Shown here: piece by piece, positions 23,053 to 38,637 of the stretch | Layout of the letters: the number at the start of each line of letters is the position of its first letter | How positions within the stretch are numbered: the stretch's first letter is position 1 | Virus record (IMG/VR): IMGVR_UViG_3300042691_041259 | Location: 64,001 to 128,000 of that record | Source of the DNA: a virus | Taxonomy: Duplodnaviria; Caudoviricetes | Length of the DNA: 64,000 bases | Direction: 5' to 3' (one strand) | The notes under the pieces: model-generated | What the model saw: only the letters and a program-made list of their open reading frames with translations | Databases searched by the model: none | What the model was told of the DNA's origin: nothing | Translations under genes and position numbers: made by a program

Positions 23053-23079
23053 AAAAAAGCGGTCTAATGGCCGCTTTTT
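23053..23079. terminator. Bidirectional terminator between convergent genes
   Basis: AAAAAAGCGGTC-taat-GGCCGCTTTTT hairpin with A/T tracts on both sides. Confidence 0.75.
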
Positions 23080-23314
23080 ATTTGTCTTTCTTTCCAAAAA
23101 GCTCATGATACTTCTTGGTGTGTTTAGATGTCTTTAATTGCTTCTTACCTTTAGTATCTCCAGGAAGCTCTTTGTAAGCATTAGGATCATCGTCATCAGC
23201 GGCAGCTTGATCCGCCATCTGATCTTTCTTCTTATCTGCAGTGCTTTTGCTAATTCCTTTGTAGTAAGGATGCTCTTCAGCTAAGAAGCTTTCGTATGTC
23301 TTTACGTGTTTCAT
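23078..23314 (-). CDS. Small protein with CTS-like leader (MKHVKTYESFLAE)
   Basis: 78 aa; YYKGISKST...DDDDPNAYKELPGD...SKHTKKY module recalled from T4-like internal-head-type proteins. Confidence 0.7.
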   Translation of the reverse strand: MKHVKTYESFLAEEHPYYKGISKSTADKKKDQMADQAAADDDDPNAYKELPGDTKGKKQLKTSKHTKKYHELFGKKDK

Positions 23315-23316
23315 CT

Positions 23317-23577
23317 TTATTTATGGAGCTTTTCAAAATAGTCTATTAGGCCTTCAATAGCCTTTTCCTTGGTCTTGAATATGTCGTCGGCCTCGGTCAT
23401 GCCTGTTCCCGACTTATTTTCTCGGTGCCAAGTCCATCCACCCAGATGAGTATCTTTGTATATCTCAACTTTATGACCTTTGTAAGTTCCTTCGTAATAA
23501 CCAGTAGTAATCTTACGAAGTTTTAGATCAGAAGCGGATTCATTAACAAAACTTTCAAATGTGCGGACGTGTTTCAT
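23317..23577 (-). CDS. Small protein with CTS-like leader (MKHVRTFESFVNE)
   Basis: 86 aa; leader motif. Confidence 0.7.
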   Translation of the reverse strand: MKHVRTFESFVNESASDLKLRKITTGYYEGTYKGHKVEIYKDTHLGGWTWHRENKSGTGMTEADDIFKTKEKAIEGLIDYFEKLHK

Positions 23578-23583
23578 TTCTTA

Positions 23584-23907
23584 CTATCCTTTTACTTCAT
23601 CGGCCAAGTCTTTATCAGCCTTGCCCCATGTACCTTTGCCTTTAGTAAGGAAGCTGTTAACACGAGCATATGCCCACTGTTCTTGCCCAGCTCCTGGACG
23701 GTGCCCACTCTTCCATGCAGCCATACCACGACGAAAAACCGCGCGAATGATTCCAATAGGAACGCCAGTCTCTTCAGCTTTTTTCTTTAGACCAGTTTCT
23801 ACAGCATCGTTGTCAATAGGACTACGGTCTGTGGATTTCTGTTCGCTGTCATCAGCTTCCCAGATCTTTTCCCACTCAAAACTTTCAAATGCGCTTATAT
23901 GTTTCAT
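23584..23907 (-). CDS. DUF5824-like protein with CTS-like leader
   Basis: LKKKAEETGVPIGIIRAVFRRGMAAWKSGHRPGAGQEQWAYARVNSFL; leader MKHISAFESFEWE. Confidence 0.75.
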   Translation of the reverse strand: MKHISAFESFEWEKIWEADDSEQKSTDRSPIDNDAVETGLKKKAEETGVPIGIIRAVFRRGMAAWKSGHRPGAGQEQWAYARVNSFLTKGKGTWGKADKDLADEVKG

Positions 23908-23912
23908 ACCTT

Positions 23913-24251
23913 TTACTTTTTTACGTAAATCGCTCCAATGATACCGCCTTTTCCGAAAACTTTGGCCTTGATTACTTTTTTATCTGGTGATAATCTAGCC
24001 TCACCCTGATATGATTGCGATCTCCAAATAACTTCCCATTTTTCCGTATCAGACGCATACTTCTTTATCATTTTGTCATATTCGCCCTTTGGAGCTTTAT
24101 CGTCAAACATGATGTATGCATCGTAGTCTTTACCCAGGACCTTATCAACGACATTTTTTCTCATTTCGTCATCGGTAAAATTGGAGTTGCCGCCAAGAAA
24201 CGCGTAATGCGATTCGGCAATAAAACTTTCAAAATTGTGTACGTGTTTCAT
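23913..24251 (-). CDS. Protein with CTS-like leader (MKHVHNFESFIAE)
   Basis: True start at M41 of the tracked ORF; ATGA overlap with the upstream stop. Confidence 0.7.
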   Translation of the reverse strand: MKHVHNFESFIAESHYAFLGGNSNFTDDEMRKNVVDKVLGKDYDAYIMFDDKAPKGEYDKMIKKYASDTEKWEVIWRSQSYQGEARLSPDKKVIKAKVFGKGGIIGAIYVKK

Positions 24252-24451
24252 TCTTCTACTTGTTTTTCTACCAGCTCCATTTCTGGACTGAGTTCTGTTA
24301 GTCGATGATTGGTGGTGGCTCCTCGGTAGTCTTTTACTTTGGCGTACACCACGTTGTTTTCCGTAACCCAAAAGCCTACAACCTTTCCAGTCTTTCCTCC
24401 GACTTTTACTGTTGCGTTTTTGAGTTCTCGAGCATCTCTCATTTTTTCCAA
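24248..24451 (-). CDS. Small hypothetical protein (SH3/KOW-like beta pattern)
   Basis: VKVGGKTGKVVGFWV; fills the gap with a coupled stop/start. Confidence 0.5.
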   Translation of the reverse strand: MEKMRDARELKNATVKVGGKTGKVVGFWVTENNVVYAKVKDYRGATTNHRLTELSPEMELVEKQVEE

Positions 24452-24456
24452 TCTTT

Positions 24457-25059
24457 TTAGGATAGGTAGCCTGAGATAAATTTAGAGTCTTCTACCAAGG
24501 AATCAAAAGTGTTTTCTACGTTCTCATCAATATCACTGATATTGTAACATACAATGAAACCAATGAGTTTCTTCTTAATGCAAAAAATTGGAACTGTTAC
24601 AAATTGCTGAATTCCAAGTCGATCCATTTCCTGGCGGTCTTTCATTTCAAGGTCTTCACTTAGTGTTGAGAAGCATTCCTTTTTAAGCATTGTAGAAATC
24701 CAGCGTGGGTATTCTGATGCCAAAATGTTCTGATGATCCCGTTTAGTCTTTTCATAGCCAGGCGCCACAGACTCATAGGTCATAGAGAATTTTTTCATGC
24801 TTCTTCCTTGAAAATACTTTCCACCGTTGTGGAACTGGAAAATTGAGGCCCGGTCAAATTGGTGTTTTTCTCTCAGTCCGTCCAGCCATTCTTGAACCTG
24901 AATCATTTCTTCAATGTCAGACTCCTCAATGTTTTCCTCTTTTTCTTTTGCATTTTTCGCTTTCCTATTGTCATAGTTATTCTTTACCATAACCGTGATT
25001 AGTGCAGCAACTATTGATCCTGCAGCTGTAATGACAGCCTTTAATAATTCCGTGTCCAT
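24457..25059 (-). CDS. Membrane-anchored GAF-like protein, possible T4 T-type holin
   Basis: One N-terminal TM helix (AVITAAGSIVAALITVMV) followed by a GAF-like pattern (DRASIFQFHNG...FVTVPIFCIKKKLIGFIVCY). Confidence 0.5.
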   Translation of the reverse strand: MDTELLKAVITAAGSIVAALITVMVKNNYDNRKAKNAKEKEENIEESDIEEMIQVQEWLDGLREKHQFDRASIFQFHNGGKYFQGRSMKKFSMTYESVAPGYEKTKRDHQNILASEYPRWISTMLKKECFSTLSEDLEMKDRQEMDRLGIQQFVTVPIFCIKKKLIGFIVCYNISDIDENVENTFDSLVEDSKFISGYLS

Positions 25060-25062
25060 CTG

Positions 25063-25200
25063 TTACCTCCCCTGGCCTACGTAAGCCTTTTTGTAATTTT
25101 TTGAGTTTTTGTTTTTACTATCTTTCTTTGAGTGCCTTCCGAGTTTCTTCTTTACTTTTTCTGTGAAATTTTTGCCTGGTTCATTTTTTGATTTTGCCAT
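25063..25200 (-). CDS. Small Lys-rich protein, 45 aa, ending YVGQGR (not in the ORF track)
   Basis: Manual translation MAKSKNEPGKNFTEKVKKKLGRHSKKDSKNKNSKNYKKAYVGQGR*. Confidence 0.7.
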   Translation of the reverse strand: MAKSKNEPGKNFTEKVKKKLGRHSKKDSKNKNSKNYKKAYVGQGR

Positions 25201-25219
25201 CTCTCATCAAATGCTTTTT

Positions 25220-25906
25220 TTACTTGGGCGGAGCAAGATCCAACTCTTTCATCATATCAACTAGTTCGTTGTATCCGATTTCGCGAAAGTCTTTTTCCAA
25301 CCGCTTTCTATCTGTGTGAGGTGATCCTGAGACTACCTCAGATATTTTCTTTTTCAACTTGTCATCTCCGGTGTCAAATGCGGAAAGAATTCTTTGCACA
25401 TTTACATCACCTAAAGCCATTTCTTCAATATAGGCTTCATAAAGTTTAACGTGTTTCATCTTTTTCTTCTTTTTCTTTTTTGTTCCGGCACCGAAAGTAT
25501 CTCCGCTTCCAACTTTACCAGAAGCGGCAGGTGTAACGTTTCCCATACCTGGTGTATTTGCTACGCTTGCAGCTGGCGCGCCAAAATCTTCTTCAACCTT
25601 TTTTGACTTTTTACCAGTCACAAAATCCATAAAAGCTTGGACCAGCGGATCTGTTTGATCACGCTTCATTGCCATTGCTTGACCAGCCATCATCTGTGGT
25701 TGAGTATCCCACCAGTAGTAGTATTCTTCCACATGGTTAGGTAGCCCTTCATGTTTTGTAGAAGCAAAGTCCTTCAGCTGTTTTAATGTCATGGAATCCG
25801 CAAGGTCTTTTACCTCATCACTTGCGTCTTTTGGATCCATCTCATCTTTTTTCAAGGCGTATGCCATGGCCATCAATTTTTGCTGGGCTTTGGATGTTGC
25901 TGGCAT
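25220..25906 (-). CDS. DUF3008-like N-terminal module fused to further modules, with an internal CTS-like leader
   Basis: MPATSKAQQKLMAMAY...LKDFASTKHEGLP; internal MKHVKLYEAYIEE starting at 25459. Confidence 0.7.
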   Translation of the reverse strand: MPATSKAQQKLMAMAYALKKDEMDPKDASDEVKDLADSMTLKQLKDFASTKHEGLPNHVEEYYYWWDTQPQMMAGQAMAMKRDQTDPLVQAFMDFVTGKKSKKVEEDFGAPAASVANTPGMGNVTPAASGKVGSGDTFGAGTKKKKKKKMKHVKLYEAYIEEMALGDVNVQRILSAFDTGDDKLKKKISEVVSGSPHTDRKRLEKDFREIGYNELVDMMKELDLAPPK

Positions 25907-25907
25907 A

Positions 25908-26090
25908 TTATTTGCCTCCTAATGTTATGATTGATTGACGAGCATCCTCAATTGCTTGTAAGGTCTGCTTCATATTCTTGTCATCTGCAATTGATGAAGC
26001 CTCATCAAAGCACTTTAAGATTTCTTGAAGCTGCGGAGTTAGCGCCTCTTCAATTGACATTTTTTCTTTGAATTCTCCAAAAGACCTCAT
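25908..26090 (-). CDS. Small protein with short CTS-like leader (MRSFGEF..MSIEE)
   Basis: 60 aa; tight coupling to neighbours. Confidence 0.55.
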   Translation of the reverse strand: MRSFGEFKEKMSIEEALTPQLQEILKCFDEASSIADDKNMKQTLQAIEDARQSIITLGGK

Positions 26091-26422
26091 TTCTGTGACG
26101 TTAATTTTTCGTGGATTCTCTTGCCTTCTGCAGACAGAGTATAGTACTTGATTCCTTCTTCCTCTTTCAGTTTGAAATACTTGGAATTAGCTTTCAGCCA
26201 ACCAGTATTAGTCTTTCTACCAGTTTCTTCATTCATCATCTTCAGGAACTGTGACATTTCTTCTTCACTCACCTTTCCTTTTTCGTTAACAAGTGAAAGG
26301 ATTCTTTCTCTGACTGGCGCATAGTTGGAAACCACCTTTTGGGGGTGCGACTCCGTGTATTTTCTTTTTACAACTACTATCGCTTCGTTAAGGAATTCGT
26401 TATATGATTTTACATGACTCAT
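26087..26422 (-). CDS. Probable winged-helix protein with CTS-like leader (MSHVKSYNEFLNE)
   Basis: RERILSLVNEKGKVSEEEM...YYTLSAEGKRIHEKL wHTH pattern. Confidence 0.6.
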   Translation of the reverse strand: MSHVKSYNEFLNEAIVVVKRKYTESHPQKVVSNYAPVRERILSLVNEKGKVSEEEMSQFLKMMNEETGRKTNTGWLKANSKYFKLKEEEGIKYYTLSAEGKRIHEKLTSQK

Positions 26423-26453
26423 CAGTCTTTCTGTATTTTTCTATATTTATCTC

Positions 26454-28133: not shown

Positions 28134-28191
28134 CTGTTTTTCGGCTTTGAGGTTTTTGTTTTTTCAACCCACATTATGAATTGTATACTAT

Positions 28192-29079
28192 TTATCCAAT
28201 TCCTTCGGGCAGCGGAAGCCCGGAATCATCAAGCTTTTTCTTATAGTCGCTCATGATATCATTTAAGCTTCCAGGATACTTAAAGTCTCCGGAAGTGAGC
28301 AACGAATAAAGTTTTTCATACGTATCAATATCAGAAGGCTTATGTCCACCATTAAATAGCAAGTCTACCACGCCTTGCGGCTCTCGAGTGATGAGTTTGT
28401 CATATTCGCTTAGAAGCTTCGCGGTCTTTACTAGTCCTTTCTTGCCTTCAAAGCTTTTTCTTACTTCCACAATGCCTTGATTTAACCTAACCACGTAGGC
28501 TTTGTACTCGGCAGTTTCTCCTTTGTCGGTTGTCTTTGTGGCCTCGAAAAAAGACTTGCCAATTGCTGCCATAAGCAAAAGGTTTCGGTATGCTCCTTTG
28601 TATTTAGACTCCGCAATTCGAAAGTCGGGTGAGTGGTAGATAAAAGTGCTCCATTCCAGGTCAGTGGAAAGCATGAGGTCAACTTGCCCAACACCATTTT
28701 TATAGTCTCCACCGATTGGAGCTCCAATACTTACTTGATTGAATCCTACTGCAAGTTTGGTGCTCATACCCATATCTTTTAATTTGTCATTCAAAGCAAA
28801 CAGAACTTTCTCGAGAGACACTCCTAAATGTCCAGCAATCTTGTCAGCCGAAACCGCCAAGTCAATGTCTCCGCTGGTTTGATCCGCCAATTTTTTGCCG
28901 GCACTTCCAAGAATTGCTGCATCATCTTTTATACCAGTTAGACCAATCTGTGGAAACACATTTTTTTCTACCCATGCTATGGTAGATTCTATTTGATCCT
29001 GTTTAAAAGGCACGGCATTCTCAATGGAGTTTCCGCTTTCAAATATGAACTGTTCAAATAGCTTAACGTATCTTTTCAT
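28192..29079 (-). CDS. DNA polymerase beta-superfamily nucleotidyltransferase with CTS-like leader
   Basis: hGS-x-DhDh motif LGSAGKKLADQTSGDIDLAV, third Asp in GQVDLM; leader MKRYVKLFEQFIFE; start moved to 29079 (TAATG overlap). Confidence 0.8.
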   Translation of the reverse strand: MKRYVKLFEQFIFESGNSIENAVPFKQDQIESTIAWVEKNVFPQIGLTGIKDDAAILGSAGKKLADQTSGDIDLAVSADKIAGHLGVSLEKVLFALNDKLKDMGMSTKLAVGFNQVSIGAPIGGDYKNGVGQVDLMLSTDLEWSTFIYHSPDFRIAESKYKGAYRNLLLMAAIGKSFFEATKTTDKGETAEYKAYVVRLNQGIVEVRKSFEGKKGLVKTAKLLSEYDKLITREPQGVVDLLFNGGHKPSDIDTYEKLYSLLTSGDFKYPGSLNDIMSDYKKKLDDSGLPLPEGIG

Positions 29080-29600
29080 TATTCCCAGTCTTTTCTCTTT
29101 GATGCTTCTGAAGCAGTTAGCCATTTTCCATCAACTACATCATAGTAGATTGAATCGTTTGGCTCGCCTGGAAAGATTAGCGAACAGCCATTGCTGCCAC
29201 CGCCAGCGTGCTTATAGCTATAGTTAAGAGTTGCCCAGATATATGGTGCAAACTCAAAGTTTTCACCAGACGCCTTGTTAATCTGTGGGAATCCGCCGCC
29301 AGAAAAAGTATTGATATAGACTTCAGCAAAACCATATTGCATAACACCTAGATCTTTACCGGTTAGTGGTTTGCTGTCGAAAGAAATACGCTTGCCGTGT
29401 GCTTTAGCAGTTAGCGCATTGTATTTAATTCCTTGGCGGCTTAGCAAATCGTTAAGAGCCGGACCGGCGTTCTTAAGAATATCAGCCATTAGGGTTGCTT
29501 CATCCTTGAATTTAGGATTGCTGGTGTAAAGAGTGTTGTCTTCGTTGAGGACATCAGCATTTTCGTTCAAATAGTTATCAAAAGACTTAATGTGTTTCAT
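29079..29600 (-). CDS. Protein with CTS-like leader (MKHIKSFDNYLNE)
   Basis: 173 aa; leader motif; unknown body. Confidence 0.7.
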   Translation of the reverse strand: MKHIKSFDNYLNENADVLNEDNTLYTSNPKFKDEATLMADILKNAGPALNDLLSRQGIKYNALTAKAHGKRISFDSKPLTGKDLGVMQYGFAEVYINTFSGGGFPQINKASGENFEFAPYIWATLNYSYKHAGGGSNGCSLIFPGEPNDSIYYDVVDGKWLTASEASKRKDWE

Positions 29601-29859
29601 TATATTTTGTTATTTTGGCTTCTAAATCCGTGGTGCCACGTATCACACGATGCATTACACCTTTTGGAATATAGATCGGTTTATTTATCCACGTAGGAAG
29701 TTGATTATCGAACTGAAATTGCCAGTCGTTTTCGTTTAGAGGTTCAACTATGCGGTCTTCGTCATCCCAATGCCACTTAAGTTCCATCTCGTCCAGATCC
29801 GCTGAAAAAGTCCGTATTACTACGGACTCACTAATTTTCTTTTCGGAATATGGCTTCAT
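29587..29859 (-). CDS. Small cupin-like protein
   Basis: LKWHWDDEDR...IYIPKGVMHRVIRG resembles the two His-containing cupin motifs. Confidence 0.55.
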   Translation of the reverse strand: MKPYSEKKISESVVIRTFSADLDEMELKWHWDDEDRIVEPLNENDWQFQFDNQLPTWINKPIYIPKGVMHRVIRGTTDLEAKITKYNETH

Positions 29860-30089
29860 TCTGTCACTTCAAATACCGCTTCGCCTACCTTTACAGTTTT
29901 ACCTAATAGATCATCAATAAAGTAGATGTTTCCATAATTGTCCTCAAATCGCATATCATCAGTAAATTCATCTGATGCTTTTAACACTTGTAAAATTTCT
30001 GCAGGGCTCTCAGACACCTGTTCTTTTCCGCTGTTATCTAGAACATCAGCAAAGAGCACAATTTCTATAAGACTATTTTCAGTAAACAT
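29856..30089 (-). CDS. Small acidic hypothetical protein
   Basis: 77 aa, coupled to neighbours. Confidence 0.55.
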   Translation of the reverse strand: MFTENSLIEIVLFADVLDNSGKEQVSESPAEILQVLKASDEFTDDMRFEDNYGNIYFIDDLLGKTVKVGEAVFEVTE

Positions 30090-30300
30090 TAGGTATAGGT
30101 TTTTTCCTTTTGGTAAGTTCCGCTTTTACTTCTTCAAGATCTTTACTGAGAAGCTCGGCTTCTTTCTTTTTTCCACGCGATTCTGCAGCCTTCTTTTCAT
30201 TGGAAAGCTCTATAACTTGAGCAGCCAATTCATTGTTAGAGTACGCACTCCAAGAATCTGTTTCATTTAAAAAGTTTTCAAATGTTTTTACGTGTTTCAT
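30079..30300 (-). CDS. Small coiled-coil protein with CTS-like leader (MKHVKTFENFLNE)
   Basis: Start at M6 of the tracked ORF; bipartite promoter motif at 30307-30330. Confidence 0.7.
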   Translation of the reverse strand: MKHVKTFENFLNETDSWSAYSNNELAAQVIELSNEKKAAESRGKKKEAELLSKDLEEVKAELTKRKKPIPNVY

Positions 30301-30319
30301 ATTGCTTATATTCATATTT

Positions 30320-31238: not shown

Positions 31239-31243
31239 AAGTG

Positions 31244-32293
31244 TTATCTTCCTTGAAATTTGTTGATGTTTTGGTTAATTACAACTCCTCTAAATATATC
31301 TATAGATCTATCTATTACCGGCTCAGCCATCCATTTTTCAGGGTTAATAATAGTTTCCAAGTACGGAACTAGCGCATTAGAAATTTCTCGTGATGCAGCA
31401 TTCCACAAGTATGTAGGAGTATGATCTACTGAGTAATATGAAATGCCTCTTTCAAGTTCAATAATTGGACTTTCAAATGTGGTAGGTTCTGCAAAGTAGA
31501 ACCCCATGCCTTTATCACAGCTGATGTCTATGATTGCTACGTTATTTCTAAGGAGCGCAAGTTCATTGGGAGTTTTTACATACATTAGTGGAGAATTTAC
31601 ATTCTGCAGTATGCCATTGAATATGATATCCGCGTCGGCAAGATCACTACTTAGGTCATCGGTAGAAATGCACTTATACCATACGTCCGGATTTTTATCA
31701 GCTACCAAGTGTGAAGGCCTTTGAGTGTACACCGTGATATTATTGAATCCGCGACCCTGCAATGCATAGATTGCGCCTCGACTTACAGACCCATAGCCTA
31801 AAACTACTACTTTCTTTCTTGGACCGTAATGACCGTCCATTCCTTTAAGTTCTAAGAAATGCAAAACTCCGGCATACCCCGCAAGTTCATTGTTCCTATA
31901 GAATATGTGTAACTTTCCGTGCTTATTTGTTAGATTCATTTCTTCCCAAGCAAGCAGTGTTAGCTTCTTTTCAATTGCCAAATCAGCAATATCTTTCTGC
32001 TGTACCGCGTGTGTCCAGCCACAAAGGATTCCGCCTTCTTTCATCTGTTCCAGGTCTGCTGCAACAGGCTTTGGCAAAATAATGATGTCACAGTTATACA
32101 GCTGTTCTCTTGGAGCTACTCTACAGCCAAAATTCAAAAAGTACTCATCGGAGTACCCATAGTCAGCGCCATAGCCTTCTTCAAACACAAGCTGCTCTCG
32201 GACGCTTTTCTCAATTTTACGAATATGCTCGGGATAAATTGGAATGCGTTTTTCGTTTTCCTTATACGATGTTTTGAATACTCCTGTTGTCAT
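31244..32293 (-). CDS. N5-(carboxyethyl)ornithine synthase-like NAD(P)H dehydrogenase (AlaDH/PNT family)
   Basis: KENEKRIPIYPE, FEEGYG, ILPKP, GWTH, LAGYAGV, Rossmann VVLGYGSVSRGA, IDISCD, VDHTP. Confidence 0.75.
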   Translation of the reverse strand: MTTGVFKTSYKENEKRIPIYPEHIRKIEKSVREQLVFEEGYGADYGYSDEYFLNFGCRVAPREQLYNCDIIILPKPVAADLEQMKEGGILCGWTHAVQQKDIADLAIEKKLTLLAWEEMNLTNKHGKLHIFYRNNELAGYAGVLHFLELKGMDGHYGPRKKVVVLGYGSVSRGAIYALQGRGFNNITVYTQRPSHLVADKNPDVWYKCISTDDLSSDLADADIIFNGILQNVNSPLMYVKTPNELALLRNNVAIIDISCDKGMGFYFAEPTTFESPIIELERGISYYSVDHTPTYLWNAASREISNALVPYLETIINPEKWMAEPVIDRSIDIFRGVVINQNINKFQGR

Positions 32294-33378
32294 TTCTTAT
32301 CTAGGTTGAAAAAGTACCGATAACCGTCTTTTGCTTTGGGATCTGTTATGAGTTCATAATCCATTGCCCATTGCGACGATTGAATTTCCTTTTTGTATTT
32401 TGGCCAGTAGTTCTGGTGTCCAGGAACTACGTATTTTTTGTAGATGTCTTCCAAGAATTCGTCGGGAAGCTGCTCACCGTAAAAGTCTTCATAAATTGCT
32501 TTATAGACTTCGCACATTTTCACGCTTCCCAACCCGGTTGCGGATGAAGTTTCCATCACCCACAGCTTTCCTTTCTTATCTACTACAATATCCAGCGACC
32601 AAAGGTTTAAGTCCAAGTCTTTCTTAATATCTGAACAGATTTGCAGAACGCTTTTGATAAATTCAGGAGAAACCTTATTTCTGTCTTGGTACACATATGT
32701 AAAAGCAATTTTTTCATTTGCTTTCTTGGTCTTAATAGAGCGGTCCTCATCAATGGTAGGAACTCGTTCATTAATGATGATGATCTGGTCCTGGCAAAAT
32801 ACTACCCGGTATTCTCTTTCAAAATCAATAAACTGGCAAAAAAGATCAAAATCTTCTTTGCTTTTCTTTAGTTCTTCGGGAGTGTCAAACTTTTGAACTC
32901 CTAATCCACTGTGGCCATTTTTAATTTTGGCAATCACAGGAAAACCAACAGCTCCGTCTAGCGCTTCTTTTTTAGAAAACACTGTTTTTGGAAGCCACTT
33001 GTATTTTCCAAAAGTTTTGCCAAACAAGGTTTTATCGCCCGACGTTGGCAAAAGTTCTCTTTTATTGTATAAGAGATCGCTGTTTACCTTTTTATTTTTG
33101 ATAAACATTTCAGACTCTTTGTCCTGTCCGCCTCCGTAATAGAGAAGCGGAATTCCATCTACAATCTGAACCTTTTCATTGTCAAAATCATCTTTGGTAA
33201 AGTAATTATGAAACAGCGCATTTTTAGCGGCCATGTTGTATTTTTTTTCGCGGCCGTTTACATCTCCCGAAGTTGTGCGTATGTCATTGGACTGCATGAC
33301 CCAGCCAACTTTCTTGGCGTACTTGTCATACATATTGGCTTCAAAGATAAATTGTTCGTAGAGTTTAACGTGTTTCAT
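32290..33378 (-). CDS. RimK-like ATP-grasp protein with CTS-like leader
   Basis: LPKTVF, FPVIAKIKNGHSGLGV, QFIDFEREYRV, SLDIVVD, VMETSSATGL (ExN reads ExS); leader MKHVKLYEQFIFE. Confidence 0.78.
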   Translation of the reverse strand: MKHVKLYEQFIFEANMYDKYAKKVGWVMQSNDIRTTSGDVNGREKKYNMAAKNALFHNYFTKDDFDNEKVQIVDGIPLLYYGGGQDKESEMFIKNKKVNSDLLYNKRELLPTSGDKTLFGKTFGKYKWLPKTVFSKKEALDGAVGFPVIAKIKNGHSGLGVQKFDTPEELKKSKEDFDLFCQFIDFEREYRVVFCQDQIIIINERVPTIDEDRSIKTKKANEKIAFTYVYQDRNKVSPEFIKSVLQICSDIKKDLDLNLWSLDIVVDKKGKLWVMETSSATGLGSVKMCEVYKAIYEDFYGEQLPDEFLEDIYKKYVVPGHQNYWPKYKKEIQSSQWAMDYELITDPKAKDGYRYFFNLDKK

Positions 33379-33386
33379 AAAAATTG

Positions 33387-33959
33387 TTATCCAAAGTATT
33401 CATTTTCAAAGTATAGAATCTCGAACTTGCTATCCGTGTTGATCAAGGTCAACGCGTTCAGAAGATCTGAGTATTCGCCCACTGCTTCATTCTGAATGTC
33501 AACATACCCTTGAATGAAGTTAAATGTAGCACAGTGAATGTCACAAAGAATTCTTTGACCTTTTTCACAGTACTTGTCATACAAATCGTATTCCATTTGG
33601 TAAGCGCGATTAATGATATCTACCAGGCTTACAAAATCAACTCGTGTAGGAGCTTGCGGAATGGCTGGCATTTCGTTCCACTGTACAAGGTAGTCCTGTA
33701 GACCTTTTGCGTGTTCTAGTTCGCTTGCCGCTTCAGCTTCAAAGAAAGCGGCTGCTTTTTTGTAGTTTACATTATTACACCAGTTTGCAGCATTTCTGTA
33801 GAAGTAATGCGCTGTATACTCGTCACCAATACGGTCATTGAGCATATTCACAACTTCTGCAGGAAGCTTATTAGGTGTGATTGGCTTAACCGCAGTCAGA
33901 TCAATTGCTTCATTGATCGTAATGTTGTTATCGCCTTTGAATGTTTGAAAAGTTTTCAT
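33387..33959 (-). CDS. Non-haem ferritin (FtnA-like) with IPI-like leader
   Basis: Ferroxidase ligands: GDEYTAHYFY, ELEHAK, QMEY, IQNEA; leader MKTFQTF...ITINE. Confidence 0.85.
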   Translation of the reverse strand: MKTFQTFKGDNNITINEAIDLTAVKPITPNKLPAEVVNMLNDRIGDEYTAHYFYRNAANWCNNVNYKKAAAFFEAEAASELEHAKGLQDYLVQWNEMPAIPQAPTRVDFVSLVDIINRAYQMEYDLYDKYCEKGQRILCDIHCATFNFIQGYVDIQNEAVGEYSDLLNALTLINTDSKFEILYFENEYFG

Positions 33960-34544
33960 CTATTTTATGTATTTTCTTAGCTCATCAAAGTACTTATGAA
34001 GCTCTTTAGGCATCTGTTCGTCGAAAGCTTTTTTGTCGTCGTCCTTTAATGCCTGACGAACTTTAGTTCCGCTTGGCCCACCGTCCTCTCTTGCGTCTAC
34101 CATCTTTACATTAAAGGATGGATCAACTGGAGTATCAGTTTTTGGACCAGTGATATATTCAACTTGTCTTTTGTAATCCGAGAATCGGTCACTTCCGCAA
34201 CCAACACCCATCGGCTCATAACCTTTGCTGCGTAGGAATTGCACCATCAGCGGTATTACCGTCTTTTGACCTTGTGGATAAATGAAATAGTCAGCAATGT
34301 AATTGTTAGCTTTTACCACATCGGCTCCCATCTTTTCCAGCAATGAATCCGGAAATGGAGACTCTTCTTTTTTGGAAAGAATTTGAATAGGTATCACAGG
34401 TAAGCCAAATTCCTCAGAAGTTCTTTTCAAAGCTGCCAAATGTCCATTGTGAAATGGCTGGAACCTTCCAGGAAAGAACACCACTTTTTGGCCTTCTTTC
34501 TCAAAAATAAAGCTTTCAAATGTCTTAACGTATTCTTTTCTCAT
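33960..34544 (-). CDS. HIGH-superfamily nucleotidyltransferase (NMNAT/cytidylyltransferase-like) with CTS-like leader
   Basis: FPGRFQPFHNGH, CGSDR, SGTKVR; leader MRKEYVKTFESFIFE. Confidence 0.85.
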   Translation of the reverse strand: MRKEYVKTFESFIFEKEGQKVVFFPGRFQPFHNGHLAALKRTSEEFGLPVIPIQILSKKEESPFPDSLLEKMGADVVKANNYIADYFIYPQGQKTVIPLMVQFLRSKGYEPMGVGCGSDRFSDYKRQVEYITGPKTDTPVDPSFNVKMVDAREDGGPSGTKVRQALKDDDKKAFDEQMPKELHKYFDELRKYIK

Positions 34545-35146
34545 TATGCAATATCTTTTGATTCAATCAATGTATACGTAAAAGAATTTCCATGCAGCAA
34601 AGCAGCCTTGCTGCAAATTGCCATGAATTGTTTAAAGTCTTTAATTCTTTTAAACACCTGACAGCCTTCGCTCCAGTTTTCTACGTATTGGCTTTCTGTT
34701 TTGGGATTGCTTCTGTGTATGTTAATTCCAAAAAGCCCTTCATCTACAATAACCTCATTAAAGGTCATATCTTTGTTTTTATCTCGCCAAACTTTTACAA
34801 GTCTTTGCTGGCAAAGAGCCTCATATTTTCCTTGATGCAGACGAATAGTATGCGATCCTCTGTATTGGTTAGGTATGAGTCTAGCAACACCCTTTGGATT
34901 GCTGTAATTCTTTACCGCCTTTGTTCCTGGATCAGTAGTGCATGCCCAAGAAAAAAACTTCCATTCACCGTTTTCCTTGTATGAAATAGTCAACAAATCG
35001 TCAAAAAGATTTGTGACCGACTTTCCAGTTGAAGAGTTTCTAACCCCAACAATGTTGACATCAAACCCTTTATTTTCTTCATCGTCAAACCAAACATATC
35101 CTTTGTTTTGTACGGCAGCTTTTATTTTTTCCAGTGTAAGACTCAT
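34544..35146 (-). CDS. YkuD/L,D-transpeptidase-like cell-wall enzyme, possible endolysin
   Basis: GINIH-X14-SEGCQV matches the HX14-17[ST]xGC catalytic motif; TTDPG upstream. Confidence 0.6.
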   Translation of the reverse strand: MSLTLEKIKAAVQNKGYVWFDDEENKGFDVNIVGVRNSSTGKSVTNLFDDLLTISYKENGEWKFFSWACTTDPGTKAVKNYSNPKGVARLIPNQYRGSHTIRLHQGKYEALCQQRLVKVWRDKNKDMTFNEVIVDEGLFGINIHRSNPKTESQYVENWSEGCQVFKRIKDFKQFMAICSKAALLHGNSFTYTLIESKDIA

Positions 35147-35155
35147 AACAAACTA

Positions 35156-36478
35156 TTATTTTTTATAGGCAAGTATGCTTCGGATTTGATGAAGCGGAGC
35201 AAAAATTCCAGTATACTTATAGAGCTTACCTTTGAATACAAAAGTAATTCCTTCGGTAGGTACTATACTTTCCAGTCCGCCAGCAGCTGCTACTCGAGTA
35301 AGCTCGTGTTCCAGCTTTGCTACATCTTTTTCATCACCATTAGTGCGAATAGAAGAAATCACAGAATCAATTTCTTTTCTCATAGAAGCTGCAGCAGCTG
35401 TAGGATTAGCTGACAAAAACGCACTGATGTTTTTCATCATTTCAGTTCCAACTTCCAGGAAGAGACTTTCCAACGGACCGTATACCTTTCTTTTGAGTTC
35501 TTTTCCACGGCTCTTTTCCATGTCAACAAACCAGTTAGCTCCTTCGCCCAAGTCTTTTTTCAGCTGTGCCGCAGTGTATGACTTGTCAATGTCTGCTATT
35601 CTTCGAGCCAAACCGTCCATTGAATTTTCTGGAATTTCCACTTTTGCTTTAGCAGCTTCTTCCTTCAGAATTTTCTTAGCCATGCCTAAAGCATAATCAC
35701 CAACCGTACTGTTAGAAGTAGAACCGCTTTCTGCCATAATGGAATCAAGCTTGCTCTTGTAATAGGAAGCCCGTTCCTTTGTTTTTGGAAATGGAATAGA
35801 AGCTATATCTTGCGGACCTCGAACAAAGAAAGTTTCTTGAGCAGTTGCATTAGCATCCGCCACAAGTTTTCCAAGTTCTCTACCGGCCTGCTTATCTTCA
35901 CCAATTGCGTTACCATCTGCATCGTGTTCAACTACGCCATGAAATACAAGCATATTCTGTCCATACGGAACAGTATTTTGTGTAATAGGCGTAATGACTT
36001 CAACCGAAGCAAAATTCTTTCCATCGTTAAAGTACTTCTTTTTGTCAGCTTCTGACAGTGAATTGATGGCACCAGTAAGATCTTTCATAGCCGCATTATA
36101 TGCGGTTTCAATATCACCTCGGCCCGCAAACATACTTGCGATACCCGCAGAATCCAAAGCAGCTTCTCCACCATTTTTAAGGTGAGACTTGTTACGAGCC
36201 GCAATAAGCTTCCCGTTTTTCCAAGAGATCATGATGTTTTGACCGTCGGTCTTTTCTTGAACAAAGTTCTCAGGCCCGAACGCGCCGCTAACGGTGGCCT
36301 CAATCATTTCGCGAAGGTCTGCCATCGTCAGTCCTACGTCTTCAAACGGATGACTGATATGGCCGTACGCTCCACCTTCATTTACCGCATTCCACTCTGC
36401 CCAAGAATTAGTACGGCCTTCGTAAAGCCTTACTTGTTCAAGAAATGCATTGTAGCTGTATAGTCTGTTTGTACTCAT
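35156..36478 (-). CDS. Ligase-type covalent nucleotidyltransferase (DUF6267-like) with N-terminal leader
   Basis: Motif I EKTDG (Lys76), SVEVI, LVFHGV, TEGITF, YKYTG resemble motifs I, III, IIIa, IV and V; leader ends AVNE|GGAYGH. Confidence 0.7.
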   Translation of the reverse strand: MSTNRLYSYNAFLEQVRLYEGRTNSWAEWNAVNEGGAYGHISHPFEDVGLTMADLREMIEATVSGAFGPENFVQEKTDGQNIMISWKNGKLIAARNKSHLKNGGEAALDSAGIASMFAGRGDIETAYNAAMKDLTGAINSLSEADKKKYFNDGKNFASVEVITPITQNTVPYGQNMLVFHGVVEHDADGNAIGEDKQAGRELGKLVADANATAQETFFVRGPQDIASIPFPKTKERASYYKSKLDSIMAESGSTSNSTVGDYALGMAKKILKEEAAKAKVEIPENSMDGLARRIADIDKSYTAAQLKKDLGEGANWFVDMEKSRGKELKRKVYGPLESLFLEVGTEMMKNISAFLSANPTAAAASMRKEIDSVISSIRTNGDEKDVAKLEHELTRVAAAGGLESIVPTEGITFVFKGKLYKYTGIFAPLHQIRSILAYKK

Positions 36479-36684
36479 TAGAATGTGCTGTCCATTATTA
36501 CTTTTGCGATATCATCAATTAAACCGCTTTTAGCAACATCCGCGCCTGGCTTAAGATAGTTTTCTTTCATCATATGTTCAATAATGACTGTTGCAAGAAC
36601 TTTAGCGCCTGATGGCTTATTCTTCCCTGCTACTTGTACTGCTGCTTCGGCAACAAATGTCTCAAATGATTTAGTGTAATTCAT
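36478..36684 (-). CDS. Small protein with CTS-like leader (MNYTKSFETFVAE)
   Basis: 68 aa; TAATG coupling. Confidence 0.7.
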   Translation of the reverse strand: MNYTKSFETFVAEAAVQVAGKNKPSGAKVLATVIIEHMMKENYLKPGADVAKSGLIDDIAKVIMDSTF

Positions 36685-36957
36685 TTACGGTGCTGTTTTT
36701 ACATGATCTATGAATGCTTCAAAGGCCTTTGTAAGATCCTCATACGCTTCATCAAGATTCGTAATATCTTTCTGATTAGGCACACCCGACACTGGATTGG
36801 GTTCTAGCGTTGCACGCATTGCAAGCTCTGCGGCTGCGGCTTTCGCCTTCTTTTGCAGATCAAGATATTTGTTAACATACTGCTTGAGGCGTGCCTCAGA
36901 AGGACTCGCCTCGTTGATTCCGTTTTCAAATTCTGAAAAGTTCATCTTATTTGGCAT
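36685..36957 (-). CDS. Small helical protein with CTS-like leader (MNFSEF..INE)
   Basis: 90 aa; abuts the next gene. Confidence 0.6.
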   Translation of the reverse strand: MPNKMNFSEFENGINEASPSEARLKQYVNKYLDLQKKAKAAAAELAMRATLEPNPVSGVPNQKDITNLDEAYEDLTKAFEAFIDHVKTAP

Positions 36958-37375
36958 CTTTTTCAGTATCGATTTCGCCTTCCTTGTTTACTTCTTCTCC
37001 CTGCTCTTCTTCTTTCTTAGGCTTAGCATCTTTTACTTCTTCACCGCCTTCTTGCGCGTCTTCAGCAGCAGGGAGTTTTTCAGTTTCTTTAGCATCTTTA
37101 GCAGCAGGAATTTCAGCTTCTTTAACACCAGCTTCATCTTTTTCTTTTTCAACTTTGTCTTTTGCCGCAGGCTTAACACCTTTGCCAGCATCCCAGTCAG
37201 CTGCAATCTCATTGAAGAACTCTTTCTTCTTCTCGTCGTCCAAGTCAGCAGGAGATTCTACTCCGTACTTTGCAAGTTTTGCTTGGAAATAGTCTTGGTA
37301 AGACTTTTGCAGCTCTGATTTTTTAGCATCTTCGGCTTCGCGGATTGAACCAATCCATTCACTAAATTTTTTCAT
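36947..37375 (-). CDS. Acidic internal-head-type protein with leader MKKFSEW..IRE
   Basis: YQDYFQAKLAKYGVESPADLDDEKKKEFFNEI helical module followed by an E/K/A-rich tail with PAAKD repeats. Confidence 0.65.
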   Translation of the reverse strand: MKKFSEWIGSIREAEDAKKSELQKSYQDYFQAKLAKYGVESPADLDDEKKKEFFNEIAADWDAGKGVKPAAKDKVEKEKDEAGVKEAEIPAAKDAKETEKLPAAEDAQEGGEEVKDAKPKKEEEQGEEVNKEGEIDTEKDAK

Positions 37376-37384
37376 TGTTCTATT

Positions 37385-38209
37385 TTATTTTATGTTTTCT
37401 TTTTTCTTTTGGAGCTTTTTAATCTCATCATTTATGCTCTGAATTGCAGACATAGCTTTTTTAGCCCCCGGATCGCTTGAATCACCTCCGTATTCATCCT
37501 CAATTTTTTTATTGAGAGACTTTTGTTTTTGCATCAGCGAATTTATCTTATCATCAATTTCTTGAACTTTATCGCTAACGCTACTTTCTTCATCTTTTTT
37601 CTTTACAAAGAAAATAGTATTTCCTTTAGGAGTATTTATAGGACCTGAACTATCATACTTTTTAGGGTCGGGAACTTCTGGACCGCCCTCCCCGGGCTTG
37701 TATTGATACATGCCCGCATCCTTTGCTTGCTTGACAGCTTTATCATAAATTTCCTTTGTTTTCTCGCTACTCATTATCCAGTATTCTTTTTTACCATCTG
37801 GATTAACGACTGACGCAGTTTTTGGGAACCCTTCAGAATCAGCTTCTTCGTATCGATCCTGGTCGGTTTTTACAAAGCCTTTAGATTCCAAATCTTCTTT
37901 TTTCTTTGCATAGTCCTCTTTTGCCTGTTCGGCCTTATCTTTTAGCAGATCTACCTGTTTTTGAATAATTTCCTTTTTCTTTGTGGAACCTTCCCCTTCA
38001 ACATCTTTCTTGGCACCTATTAAAGCTTTGATTTTGTCTCGTATAGCAGAAAGCAGTCCTTCATTCATGCATTCATCAATATTAACAAATTCAATAATCT
38101 CTTCTTCTGTTAAAGAATTAAATACATCAGAATTTTCTACTTCCAGCGTAAAACTTTTAATAGATTCTTTTAGAGCAAATTGCTCAAATTTCATAATACG
38201 AGTTTTCAT
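37385..38209 (-). CDS. Charged coiled-coil protein with leader MKTRIMKFEQF..KE
   Basis: 274 aa, K/E/D-rich; further candidate sites LTEE and MNE|G. Confidence 0.6.
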   Translation of the reverse strand: MKTRIMKFEQFALKESIKSFTLEVENSDVFNSLTEEEIIEFVNIDECMNEGLLSAIRDKIKALIGAKKDVEGEGSTKKKEIIQKQVDLLKDKAEQAKEDYAKKKEDLESKGFVKTDQDRYEEADSEGFPKTASVVNPDGKKEYWIMSSEKTKEIYDKAVKQAKDAGMYQYKPGEGGPEVPDPKKYDSSGPINTPKGNTIFFVKKKDEESSVSDKVQEIDDKINSLMQKQKSLNKKIEDEYGGDSSDPGAKKAMSAIQSINDEIKKLQKKKENIK

Positions 38210-38223
38210 TTTTCTTATTTTTT

Positions 38224-38610
38224 TTATGACATTCCGTAGATGTTCTGGAATTTTCCGTAGTATTTATCCAACTCCTCACTAAGTATTTTGGTAACAGCTT
38301 CCTGACCCATTCCTACCGCATCGGCAAGCTTCTTGATGATATCTTCATCAATACGAAGTTTTTTGTCCATTGCATGAACAAAGGTAGTAACACACTGGTT
38401 AATGAGAGTTTCTAACTGCTTATCGCCTTCGGCTTTAGGCCAAAATATGTCAAGCAGATGAGATCTGAGTCCATCTAAAGTGGGGTCTGCGTGGTTAACT
38501 CCCGATGCTACGGGATTGTTAGTCATGGGAAGATCGTGAGACTTGGAACTCTTTGCGTTTCCTGCTCCTCTTGCATAACCCTCGTTAAGAAATTCTTTGA
38601 AAGACTTCAT
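38224..38610 (-). CDS. Protein with T4-like CTS (MKSFKEFLNE)
   Basis: Ten-residue leader nearly identical in pattern to MKTYQEFIAE; GATATATAG at 38627-38635 heads the block. Confidence 0.75.
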   Translation of the reverse strand: MKSFKEFLNEGYARGAGNAKSSKSHDLPMTNNPVASGVNHADPTLDGLRSHLLDIFWPKAEGDKQLETLINQCVTTFVHAMDKKLRIDEDIIKKLADAVGMGQEAVTKILSEELDKYYGKFQNIYGMS

Positions 38611-38637
38611 TTACCGGATATTTATGCTATATATCCG

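Follow-up and report, generated by a model that had tools for sequence, protein, structure and literature searches.

Why do so many proteins of one uncultured huge phage begin in the same way? About 30 otherwise unrelated proteins, several of them enzymes, open with a common tag of 10-13 residues. We followed this tag through the window (the whole stretch of 64,000 nucleotides under analysis; Table 1), the 202.5 kb contig, which is estimated to be 66% complete, and related phages.

Occurrence and form of the leader

The first-pass annotation placed 20 leader starts in one block and five outliers at 12893, 13623, 13877, 45037 and 45239. All of them exist as minus-strand ATGs that open the peptides it had read. 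The canonical 13-residue form, M-K-[HY]-[VI]-K-T-[FY]-E-x-F-[LIV]-x-E, is found in 13-14 block genes. Shorter or irregular forms are found in 6-7 (26090, 33959, 36478, 36957, 37375, 38209 and 38610). One extra leader lies at an in-frame internal Met. The leader is concentrated at N-termini: a conservative core expression matches 20 of 198 of them, whereas among internal 22-residue windows the rate is 0.86% (P about 2e-15). Behind the leader the proteins share no similarity, as had been stated: BLASTP of the mature parts gives no pair at E<0.01.

A profile made from eight leaders of the present phage gives 20 matches in called genes of the contig, each N-terminal or at an in-frame Met, and one match in 451 decoy ORFs. 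It gives 24 matches in LR756500.1, a 462 kb relative, and none in Tenacibaculum phage PTm1. The whole-contig tally is 21 strong and 11 weaker cases, 32 candidates in total. Hence, the earlier figure of about 25 tagged proteins is if anything low, and the leader is a trait of a whole, large and uncultured clade rather than of one phage. Tagged ORFs within 10 kb of the capsid gene number 86, in 43 of 80 related loci. In a relative (L062) the ATP-grasp orthologue is leader-tagged too and sits two genes downstream of that for the capsid. In LR756502.1 most matches are confined to leader positions 1-10, with irregularity in the terminal [LIV]-x-E; cleavage at this site may not be universal.

The replication enzymes had been described as free of the leader, which is borne out for all those identified with PHROGs on the contig. 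We found no leader on the SbcCD-like nuclease, DnaB-like helicase, UvsX and topoisomerase II, nor on the NAD-ligase, RNR, DNA polymerase and a helicase.

Table 1. Leader genes of the window, with neighbouring block genes and predicted transcription signals. A slash marks the proposed cut.
Feature	Position	Strand	Leader or remark
Late-promoter-like element GATATATAG	38627..38635	-	16 nt upstream of first leader gene
Leader gene, 128 aa	38224..38610	-	short T4-like form MKSFKEFLNE/G
Leader gene, 274 aa	37385..38209	-	irregular form MKTRIMKFEQFALKE/S
Leader gene, 142 aa, acidic, Lys-rich	36947..37375	-	MKKFSEWIGSIRE/A
Leader gene, 90 aa	36685..36957	-	MPNKMNFSEFENGINE/A
Leader gene, 68 aa	36478..36684	-	MNYTKSFETFVAE/A
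Leader gene, 440 aa, virus-only DUF6267-like family	35156..36478	-	three successive [LV]-x-E sites before GGAYGH; LR756500.1 homologue has clean leader MKFLKSYEEFLNE
Block gene without leader, 200 aa	34544..35146	-	
Leader gene, 194 aa, cytidylyltransferase-like HxGH enzyme	33960..34544	-	MRKEYVKTFESFIFE/K; Pfam PF01467
Leader gene, 190 aa, ferritin-like	33387..33959	-	MKTFQTFKGDNNITINE/A; Pfam PF00210 from residue 38
Leader gene, 362 aa, ATP-grasp (R2K/RimK-like)	32290..33378	-	MKHVKLYEQFIFE/A
Block gene without leader, AlaDH/PNT-like	31244..32293	-	4-nt overlap with ATP-grasp gene
Leader gene, 125 aa	30861..31238	-	MKYVKTFEDFLNE/T
Leader gene, 179 aa	30320..30859	-	MKYVKTFEDFQVSE/G
Leader gene, 73 aa from ATG at 30300	30079..30300	-	MKHVKTFENFLNE/T
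Leader gene, 173 aa	29079..29600	-	MKHIKSFDNYLNE/N
Leader gene, 295 aa from ATG at 29079	28192..29079	-	MKRYVKLFEQFIFE/S
Block gene without leader, 559 aa	26454..28133	-	conserved in LR756500.1
Leader gene, 111 aa	26087..26422	-	MSHVKSYNEFLNE/A; variant AAATATAG upstream
Weak leader gene, 60 aa	25908..26090	-	MRSFGEFKEKMSIEE/A
Leader at in-frame internal Met (25459)	25220..25459	-	MKHVKLYEAYIEE, after poly-Lys run inside ORF 25220-25906, whose two halves are separate genes in LR756500.1
Leader gene, 112 aa	23913..24251	-	MKHVHNFESFIAE/S
Leader gene, 107 aa, DUF5824	23584..23907	-	MKHISAFESFEWE
Leader gene, 86 aa	23317..23577	-	MKHVRTFESFVNE/S
Leader gene, 78 aa, Lys-rich, last of block	23078..23314	-	MKHVKTYESFLAE/E
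Bidirectional hairpin terminator	23054..23079	.	11-pair stem then T run, both strands; closes block
Outlying leader gene, 75 aa	13650..13877	-	MKHVRTFENFLNE/G; GATATATAG 20 nt upstream
Outlying leader gene, 105 aa	13306..13623	-	MKHIKTYESFISD
Outlying weak leader gene, 85 aa	12636..12893	-	MRHVSNYVEFLYE/G
Outlying short-form leader gene, 66 aa	45039..45239	-	MKSFNEAINE/S; GATATATAG 15 nt upstream
Outlying weak leader gene, 108 aa	44711..45037	-	MKTFDESRKVQLLE/E

A disordered extension ending in a cleavage-type site

Enzyme domains had been said to begin right after the final Glu. The leader does lie outside the fold, but the exact start at the Glu does not hold. In the cytidylyltransferase the leader ends at E15, the modelled fold starts from residue 19 and the Pfam domain from residue 23; in the ferritin-like protein the Pfam domain begins 20 residues past the leader Glu. 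The AF2 model of the cytidylyltransferase is of low confidence over residues 1-20 (pLDDT 54-65) and lowest at residues 13-16, where the cut is proposed. Among the homologues of this enzyme 113 of 120 carry the leader. Across the orthologues Phe fills the leader's aromatic positions in 93-96% of cases, and the leader has an information content of 2.93 bits, the enzyme body one of 3.17. Outgroup cytidylyltransferases are without leader and start at the Rossmann strand. In variants with inserts of 45-75 residues the leader stays at the extreme N-terminus, and a second x-F-E/A site precedes the fold.

An [LIV]-x-E followed by a small residue is found within residues 8-21 of 27 of the 32 leader proteins, versus 10 of the 166 others; all 11 irregular leader forms have a cleavage-type [LIV]-x-E. 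Spacing in the core [FY]-x-x-[FY]-[LIV]-x-E equals that in T4 MKTYQEFIAE, which forms the N-termini of ipII and ipIII (MKTYQEFIAE/A), and the conserved columns of the core are aromatic 0, aromatic +3, [LIV] +4 and Glu +6. Of the T4 residues, 4 and 7 are needed for targeting and 8 and 10 for processing; the gp21 cut follows L/I-x-E (PMC9026906). When the profile built from the present phage only is applied to 105 T4 ORFs, ipII takes the first rank and ipIII the second, with weak scores of 7.5 and 6.4 bits. The cleavage site of T4 gp23 itself, FGSFLTE65/A at the end of its 65-residue propeptide (PMC5694885), is the leader heptad.

Probable late transcription, head genes and the scaffold

The block runs from the late-promoter-like ATATATAG to a strong predicted terminator, which also ends a plus-strand Hsp20-like gene. 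The window has six occurrences of GATATATAG, each on the minus strand, against an expectation of 0.53. Genome-wide it lies 5-66 nt (most often 15-36 nt) upstream of genes, among them those for the tail sheath, a head-closure-like protein and structural proteins of 2187 and 2234 aa. The genes for sheath, head closure and fibres have ATATATAG in front of them, as does the first block gene, and a gp55-type late sigma factor is encoded in the genome. Block genes follow one another end to end; there is hardly any intergenic space, and no ribosome-binding site is obvious. They are surrounded by replication genes, not by the head module.

The contig has a gp20 portal gene, gp4- and gp2-like genes and, at its end, a gp23 fragment. 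A search for a protease or scaffold gene on its 202.5 kb found none, which we attribute to the capsid gene being cut by the contig end. In relatives whose capsid fragment is 96-97% identical, a 631-aa protease-scaffold gene lies directly upstream of the capsid gene and scores 44.8 bits for Peptidase_S77 (cut-off 27). The gp21-like protease that the earlier proposal called for is thus absent from the contig and present in near relatives, from which we infer it for the present phage. In 21 relatives the capsid protein begins M-x-[LIV]-[LI]-N-E/[SA], with the tetrapeptide that ends the consensus leader.

The clade scaffold contains 14-residue repeats that bear the leader heptad (YSEYLAEK). In the protease-scaffolds of six leader-positive phages the heptad [FYW]..[FYWH][LIVM].E is repeated 10, 10, 6, 3, 11 and 15 times with a 14-residue period, against about 0.2 expected per protein. 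It was sought and not found in the scaffolds of the leader-negative phages PTm1 and PAU.

Proposed packaging and its alternatives

Hence, we suggest that the leader is a lineage-specific 13-residue capsid-targeting propeptide of the T4 kind, which also occurs in a 10-residue version nearly identical to that of T4, and we regard packaging as the best explanation and a reasonably probable one. The idea of a T4-type propeptide cut by a gp21-type protease has gained partial support from several independent lines of sequence evidence: the T4-residue spacing, the [LIV]-x-E enrichment, the position outside the fold, the conservation in more than 100 orthologues, the protease gene by the capsid gene of relatives, the scaffold heptad repeats and the late-promoter-like element.

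The tagged genes would be transcribed together with the late genes. The exposed amphipathic N-terminal peptide would then offer the same heptad, [FY]-x-x-[FY]-[LIV]-x-E, as the tandem scaffold repeats, and we therefore propose that the tagged proteins co-assemble with the scaffolding core in the prohead. Scaffold and leaders would both be substrates of the gp21-type (Peptidase_S77) prohead protease, with the cut after the Glu. The released leaders and the pieces of scaffold would exit, and the mature cargo would remain in the head with the DNA. Thus, the tagged proteins probably enter the head and lose their leaders inside it. What we infer is that they bind the scaffold, are cut, end up in virions and reach the host; co-injection in particular is speculative.

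Several observations were counted against packaging. The block lies among replication genes, and the protease and scaffold genes are absent from the contig. The ATP-grasp gene overlaps the AlaDH-like gene, which has no tag, and the genes of 559 and 200 aa also lack one; it would be odd if only the tagged one of coupled partners was packaged. PTm1 has the same protease family and no tag, and a clade amidoligase co-occurs perfectly with the tag.

The tag might instead serve the prohead protease, or some other late factor, as a docking and cleavage module on proteins that are not retained in the virion. It could time the activation or removal of proteins at head assembly, for example, or be a chaperone or assembly-factor tag. 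This would explain the conserved [LIV]-x-E, the disordered add-on and the late promoter equally well, and it would suit the tagged metabolic enzymes, since the untagged partners of these presumably act in the cytoplasm. However, the likeness to the scaffold repeats favours co-assembly with the core over a free cytoplasmic substrate, and gp21-type proteases, as in T4, work inside the prohead. In T4 the same heptad also suffices for encapsidation (PMC9026906), and we consider the docking module unlikely. A recognition sequence for a clade-specific modifying enzyme, most plausibly an Amidoligase_2-type ligase and comparable to the leaders of RiPP- or Pup-type ligases, appears to us very unlikely. 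The amidoligase is present in 4/4 leader-positive genomes tested and 0/3 leader-negative ones, is found in 6 of 50,697 phage records, all of this clade, and has a small tagged or tag-like gene directly downstream in 3/4 genomes. Yet this co-occurrence is confounded by common ancestry (37 contig genes are common to LR756500.1 but absent from PTm1), and the adjacency amounts to a single conserved gene pair, in genomes with the tag on 10-15% of their genes. The other candidate modifying enzyme, the ATP-grasp protein, is absent from the genome with most leader matches. Moreover, a modifying enzyme leaves the match to the mapped T4 residues, the scaffold repeats and the capsid N-terminus unexplained.

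We find it hardly credible that the conservation lies in the nucleic acid or in translation initiation, for example in a start cassette that recombination has spread or in a downstream box for a Bacteroidota host without Shine-Dalgarno sites. The tight gene packing without obvious ribosome-binding sites suits this reading, and identical residues share a codon slightly above expectation (0.63 vs 0.52). However, the DNA upstream of leader genes is not conserved and varies from gene to gene, and synonymous codons in the leaders follow genomic usage (TTT 0.76 vs 0.74, GAA 0.72 vs 0.73); therefore selection acts on the peptide. A relative of 24% GC retains the same peptide, as do more than 100 orthologues that encode it with other codons, and the insertion variants hold it at the N-terminus.

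The leader resembles tags and propeptides of other phages, and a literature search found no paper tying this leader to huge phages. Giant phages of the phiKZ type (phiKZ, 201phi2-1, SPN3US; PMC5694885, PMC9026906) load 19 or more proteins into a large capsid and trim them after Glu, with a diverged gp21-type protease, paralogues with conserved N-termini and cargo enzymes including a virion RNA polymerase. Their propeptides differ: they are mostly about 80-275 residues long, end at S/A-x-E, have no single short common tag and belong to an unrelated lineage. Sphingomonas phage PAU (JQ362498), a jumbo phage with T4-type head genes, has its own common leader: about 10 genes around portal, protease and scaffold start with MKT[LI]xxLYExKLNE, which ends in L-N-E as here. 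The KLNE ending is on the scaffold and on two genes annotated, by the depositor only, as internal capsid protein; no published proteomics for these proteins was found in the literature search. However, the PAU sequence differs from the present leader (the profile has no match in PAU), and its scaffold has the tag at the N-terminus without internal heptad repeats.

The closest likeness is to the T4 capsid-targeting sequence of IPI, IPII and IPIII (Mullaney and Black; PMC9026906, PMC3012670). In both, an N-terminal sequence of 10-19 residues, here a putative propeptide, heads unrelated proteins. The four conserved columns, with Leu/Ile at +4, correspond to T4 Y4, F7, I8 and E10, and the leader ends as a gp21 site, L/I-x-E then a small residue. 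The head is also of T4 type (gp20, gp23), near relatives have the Peptidase_S77 protease, and the short forms MKSFKEFLNE and MKSFNEAINE are almost T4's own sequence. Unlike in T4, three more residues stand between M-K and the first aromatic of the 13-residue main form, and about 30 proteins are tagged on two thirds of the genome, compared with three. The tagged enzymes are of 20-67 kDa, with predicted functions (ferritin-like, HxGH nucleotidyltransferase, ATP-grasp, PAP2-domain protein). What is new here is a scaffold built of leader-heptad repeats, present in 6/6 leader-positive and 0/2 leader-negative scaffolds: no such tandem copies are seen in T4 gp22, where the heptad sits instead at the gp23 cleavage site.

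A leader shared by unrelated proteins

The first-pass annotation described a capsid-targeting-like leader on a block of genes, and all starts that it listed are minus-strand ATGs opening such peptides. The leader comprises 10-13 residues with the core [FY]-x-x-[FY]-[LIV]-x-E; the first aromatic residue, the second one, [LIV] and Glu are referred to as columns 0, +3, +4 and +6. The core is found by regular expression in 20 of 198 N-termini versus 0.86% of internal 22-residue windows (P ~2e-15), so that the N-terminal enrichment is confirmed. A profile was trained on eight leaders only, to escape circularity. On the contig it matches 20 domains, all at the N-terminus or at an in-frame Met, the latter being probably the true start. 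The controls gave one match per 451 decoy ORFs and none in the Tenacibaculum phage PTm1; with the same profile none was detected in the Sphingomonas phage PAU or in Lak-A1. With the shorter and irregular forms added, the contig has 32 candidates, 21 of them inside the block.

The tagged proteins had been called unrelated, and indeed no pair among the 32 has BLASTP E<0.01 after removal of the first 20 residues. Paralogy is thus rejected, as the mature parts are unrelated. As in a capsid targeting sequence (CTS) of phage T4, a short peptide at the extreme N-terminus (10-19 residues) is common to unrelated proteins. The replication enzymes were said to lack the leader, and this holds for those identified in the window, where the replication set comprises SbcCD-like nuclease, DnaB-like helicase, UvsX, topoisomerase II, NAD-ligase, RNR, DNA polymerase and helicase. 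Most tagged proteins received no assignment from Pfam and PHROGs. PDB sequence searches with the 440-aa and 295-aa tagged proteins returned nothing usable, and the Atlas groups the 440-aa protein with virus-only, DUF6267-like proteins. One leader had been overlooked; its start is the internal Met at 25459, which follows a poly-Lys run. The ORF that holds it consists of a homologue of a 127-aa gene of the huge phage LR756500.1 and a leader-tagged body, joined by seven Lys codons (A-rich homopolymer); LR756500.1 keeps the two halves as two genes. The ORF may be a real fusion, contain an internal start or reflect a homopolymer length error that deleted a stop.

The phage is uncultured. Its contig (202.5 kb, recorded as linear, estimated as 66% complete in the IMG/VR record; the window is 64001-128000) carries nearly all genes on the minus strand. 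By portal, its nearest database relatives are uncultured huge phages, with 49% identity to LR756500.1 (462 kb; tblastn), 37% to Lak megaphages of Prevotella, ~34-35% to genomes of 634-735 kb and 30-33% to the cultured jumbo phages PTm1 and PAU. Searched for near-identical DNA, GenBank phages gave no match to the block, and the 776-aa gene adjoining the capsid gene, used as a search anchor, found a single distant, uninformative locus. In IMG/VR, 591 stretches are related to the capsid fragment of the contig. LR756500.1 has 22-24 leader matches (24 by the profile, 22 of them N-terminal), LR756501.1 has seven, and LR756502.1 (642 kb) has 38 by the profile, mostly at positions 1-10 and with a less regular ending. 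Of 80 loci around the capsid gene of relatives, 43 contain tagged ORFs, 86 in all.

The DNA upstream of the leader starts varies gene by gene, synonymous codons in the leaders follow genomic usage (TTT 0.76 versus 0.74, GAA 0.72 versus 0.73, AAA 0.68 versus 0.60), and the same peptide, MKYIKEYEEF[LIV]xE, opens ~23 proteins of LR756500.1 despite its 24% GC. Hence, selection acts on the peptide. To the extent that sequence is informative, upstream DNA and codon usage exclude a DNA-level cassette or translation element.

The cytidylyltransferase-like enzyme of the block has 230 metagenomic homologues, and the best 120 include 113 with the leader. Among 105 orthologues that were not selected by motif, position 0 is Phe in 93% and position +3 in 96%, and mean information is 2.93 bits in the leader versus 3.17 in the enzyme body. 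In the AlphaFold2 model (mean pLDDT 90.7) residues 1-20 reach just 54-65, with the minimum at residues 13-16, spanning the proposed cut F-I-F-E15/K16 (a slash marks the cut), and the Rossmann fold starts at strand 19-26. Outgroup enzymes of cultured Stenotrophomonas and Xanthomonas phages open right at the Rossmann strand (e.g. MNILFPGRFQP). Natural variants that carry an insertion of 45-75 residues retain the leader at the extreme N-terminus and a second x-F-E/A site ahead of the enzyme; in a few proteins the leader is internal, behind a fused upstream protein. The leader is thus added on outside the fold and behaves as a short linear docking and cleavage motif.

In the Microcystis phage Mel-JY01 this enzyme and the 440-aa protein form one fused gene, and in LR756500.1 the homologue of another gene of the block carries a C-terminal cytidylyltransferase-like domain with degenerate HxGH (TLGH). 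These three or four genes probably work together.

Likeness to the T4 tag and to scaffold repeats

In T4, ipII and ipIII start with MKTYQEFIAE/A and ipI with MKTFKEF. For targeting, residues 4 and 7 matter most, and for processing residues 8 and 10; the prohead protease gp21 cleaves after L/I-x-E (PMC9026906). Y4, F7, I8 and E10 are spaced as the four most conserved columns of the leader, and the short forms MKSFKEFLNE and MKSFNEAINE of the window are almost T4's own sequence. F/Y occupies column 0 in 24/24 and F column +3 in 22/24 leaders, which is partly forced by the regular expression. Applied to 20 kb of T4 DNA with 105 ORFs, the leader profile puts ipII first and ipIII second, with low scores (7.5 and 6.4 bits; 2.9 for the next ORF). 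As for processing, [LIV]-x-E lies within residues 8-21 of 30/32 leader proteins versus 32/166 others. With a small residue following, the numbers are 27/32 and 10/166, and this longer form is present in all 11 irregular leaders.

The contig encodes a T4-type head, with a gp23-family capsid fragment at its extreme end (PF07068, 43.9 bits) and a gp20-type portal (phrog_213, E 8e-62). Tail sheath, large terminase, gp4-like head closure, gp2-like DNA end protector and a gp55-type late sigma factor are also encoded. Neither a Peptidase_S77 match nor a homologue of the LR756500.1 protease was found on the 202.5 kb, which stop inside the capsid gene. The two nearest relatives (capsid fragment 96-97% identical) have a protease-scaffold gene of 631 aa immediately upstream of the capsid gene, and its N-terminal domain is Peptidase_S77 (44.8 bits, cut-off 27); LR756500.1 and PTm1 have the same gene order. 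The capsid N-termini of 21 relatives read M-x-[LIV]-[LI]-N-E/[SA]...P-I-[IL]-E/[SE], where L-N-E before S or A is the end of the consensus leader.

In the protease-scaffold proteins of leader-positive phages the scaffold part shows a 3-4-fold enrichment of [LIV]-x-E, with P values between 1e-7 and 1e-9 for the nearest relatives. It is built of tandem 14-residue repeats, Y-[SA]-E-[YH]-[LI]-A-E-[KE] followed by x6, every one of which includes a gp21-type cleavage site. The heptad [FYW]..[FYWH][LIVM].E has a background of 17 per 55,523 residues; for the protease-scaffold proteins of six leader-positive phages the counts are 10, 10, 6, 3, 11 and 15. PTm1 and PAU, which are leader-negative, have none in their scaffolds. 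As the scaffold repeats carry the leader heptad, the leader looks like a single scaffold repeat unit, cleavage site included. Judged from these sequences, the shared unit suggests a simple co-assembly mechanism: the cargo would join the scaffolding core by the heptad, and the protease that dismantles the core would also cut the cargo free. The strict heptad is absent from T4 gp22, gp67 and gp68, and the scaffold-repeat relation is thus clade-specific and no general T4 property. In T4 too the targeting tag resembles the cleavage module of a structural protein, the gp23 maturation site FGSFLTE65/A fitting the CTS heptad (YQEFIAE/A); the gp23 propeptide has 65 residues (PMC5694885).

Expression of the block

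The T4 late promoter is TATAAATA. In this phage, ATATATAG precedes the start codons of tail sheath, head-closure-like, 2187-aa and 2234-aa structural, capsid-adjacent and other genes by 5-66 nt, mostly by 15-36 nt. Copies also stand 16 nt ahead of the first block gene and upstream of three further leader genes. With the gp55-type sigma factor encoded, ATATATAG is a plausible candidate for a T4-style late promoter. A sigma-70 promoter scan of the block gave 35 hits versus 41.9 expected, i.e. no enrichment, and is uninformative for a Bacteroidota host. The genes of the block follow one another closely: one gap is 58 nt, and the others range from -46 to +31 nt.

Just before the first block gene ATATATAG is situated partly in the loop and partly in the stem of an inverted repeat of 7 bp (CGGATAT...ATATCCG); folding could take place in DNA or in the mRNA leader. 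An Hsp20-like gene, assigned by eye and among the very few on the plus strand, converges on the block and shares its terminator. Among the replication genes, a gene resembling, by eye, a GIY-YIG homing endonuclease is preceded by the late-promoter-like GATATATAG.

Positions of the features discussed (numbers without prefix refer to the window; L-numbers denote comparison loci)
Feature	Position	Strand	Remark
GIY-YIG homing endonuclease-like gene	7994-8572
Hsp20-like gene	22677-23036	plus
Strong bidirectional terminator	23054-23079	both	block end
Block of tagged genes	23078-38610	minus
ORF with seven Lys codons	25220-25906
Gene with cytidylyltransferase-like domain in LR756500.1	26454-28133		homologue at L007:13259-15220
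Cytidylyltransferase-like enzyme	33960-34544
Enzyme and 440-aa protein	33960-36478		one gene in Mel-JY01 (L008)
7-bp inverted repeat region	38611-38637
Amidoligase_2-like gene	genome 150067-151470 (L001:4067-5470)		overlaps small leader-tagged gene by 4 nt; beside baseplate genes
Scaffold half with 6-15 tandem repeats	L062:6507-8402, L061:3931-5826, L058:8659-10758, L052:7891-10314		relatives
T4 gene 23	L146:8946-10511
PAU tagged genes	L053, 102554-115849
Lak-A1 417-aa protein	L050:8502-9755		downstream of portal

Proposed packaging, rival readings and known systems

Capsid targeting with injection, as proposed in the first-pass annotation, is supported in part. We suggest that the leader is probably a T4-type capsid-targeting and cleavage tag, which explains the sequence data best. 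Packaging itself is spoken against by the coupling of tagged enzymes to untagged partners, by the position of the block amid replication genes and by the irregular cleavage motif in the 640 kb relatives. One copy each of the 32 mature proteins amounts to ~585 kDa, little beside the content of a T4 head with its roughly 1000 internal protein molecules (PMC3012670); hence, capacity is no obstacle. Tentatively, and with rather less confidence than in the tag, we propose that an abundant clade of huge Bacteroidota phages could pack dozens of scaffold-unit-tagged proteins, enzymes among them, and inject them along with the DNA as a ready-made starter proteome for takeover and counter-defence. The cargo candidates include a ferritin-like protein, nucleotidyltransferases and an ATP-grasp ligase.

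The tag might also mark protease substrates that are not kept in the head. Quite improbably, it is the recognition sequence of an Amidoligase_2-type modifying enzyme. Such a gene accompanies the tag in 4/4 leader-positive genomes versus 0/3 leader-negative ones, is limited to six phage records among 50,697, each from a huge phage of the leader clade, and is adjoined by a small tagged gene in 3/4 genomes. However, this co-occurrence is confounded by shared ancestry, and the amidoligase leaves the T4 match and the scaffold repeats unexplained. ATP-grasp as the tag reader is rejected, since LR756502.1, which has more leader matches than the other genomes, lacks it.

If the capsid-targeting reading is true, a portable 13-residue address defines the packaged, and probably injected, proteome of widespread huge phages by sequence alone. 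Dozens of hypothetical proteins would then become candidate early effectors and anti-defence factors, part of the purpose of huge capsids would be explained, and the targeting mechanism would consist in cargo mimicking one scaffold repeat unit with the protease site built in. This picture further hints at a design principle, borrowed from nature, for getting foreign proteins into capsids, a use to which the T4 CTS is already put. Should the reading fail, there is nonetheless a short linear motif under strong selection on >10% of the proteome, which needs another explanation. Our literature search found neither a paper tying a capsid targeting sequence to huge phages or megaphages nor proteomic data for this clade.

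Other lineages offer parallels. In PAU, ~ten genes around portal, protease and scaffold start with MKT[LI]xxLYExKLNE; they include the scaffold and two annotated as internal capsid protein, and the capsid protein has KLNE near its N-terminus. No published PAU proteomics was found in the literature, and PAU serves as an analogy only. Its tag differs in sequence from that of our phage and is alike in the L-N-E ending. Separate lineages seem to use separate address tags with this common ending. In Lak-A1 a 417-aa protein opens with MRTFINDILNE/A, which has a CTS-like end, and Lak may have its own tag.

T4 has three internal proteins, whereas at least 30 proteins are tagged on this partial genome. 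The kind of system is known from T4; new are its scale, its cargo, the abundant uncultured clade and the relation to scaffold repeats.
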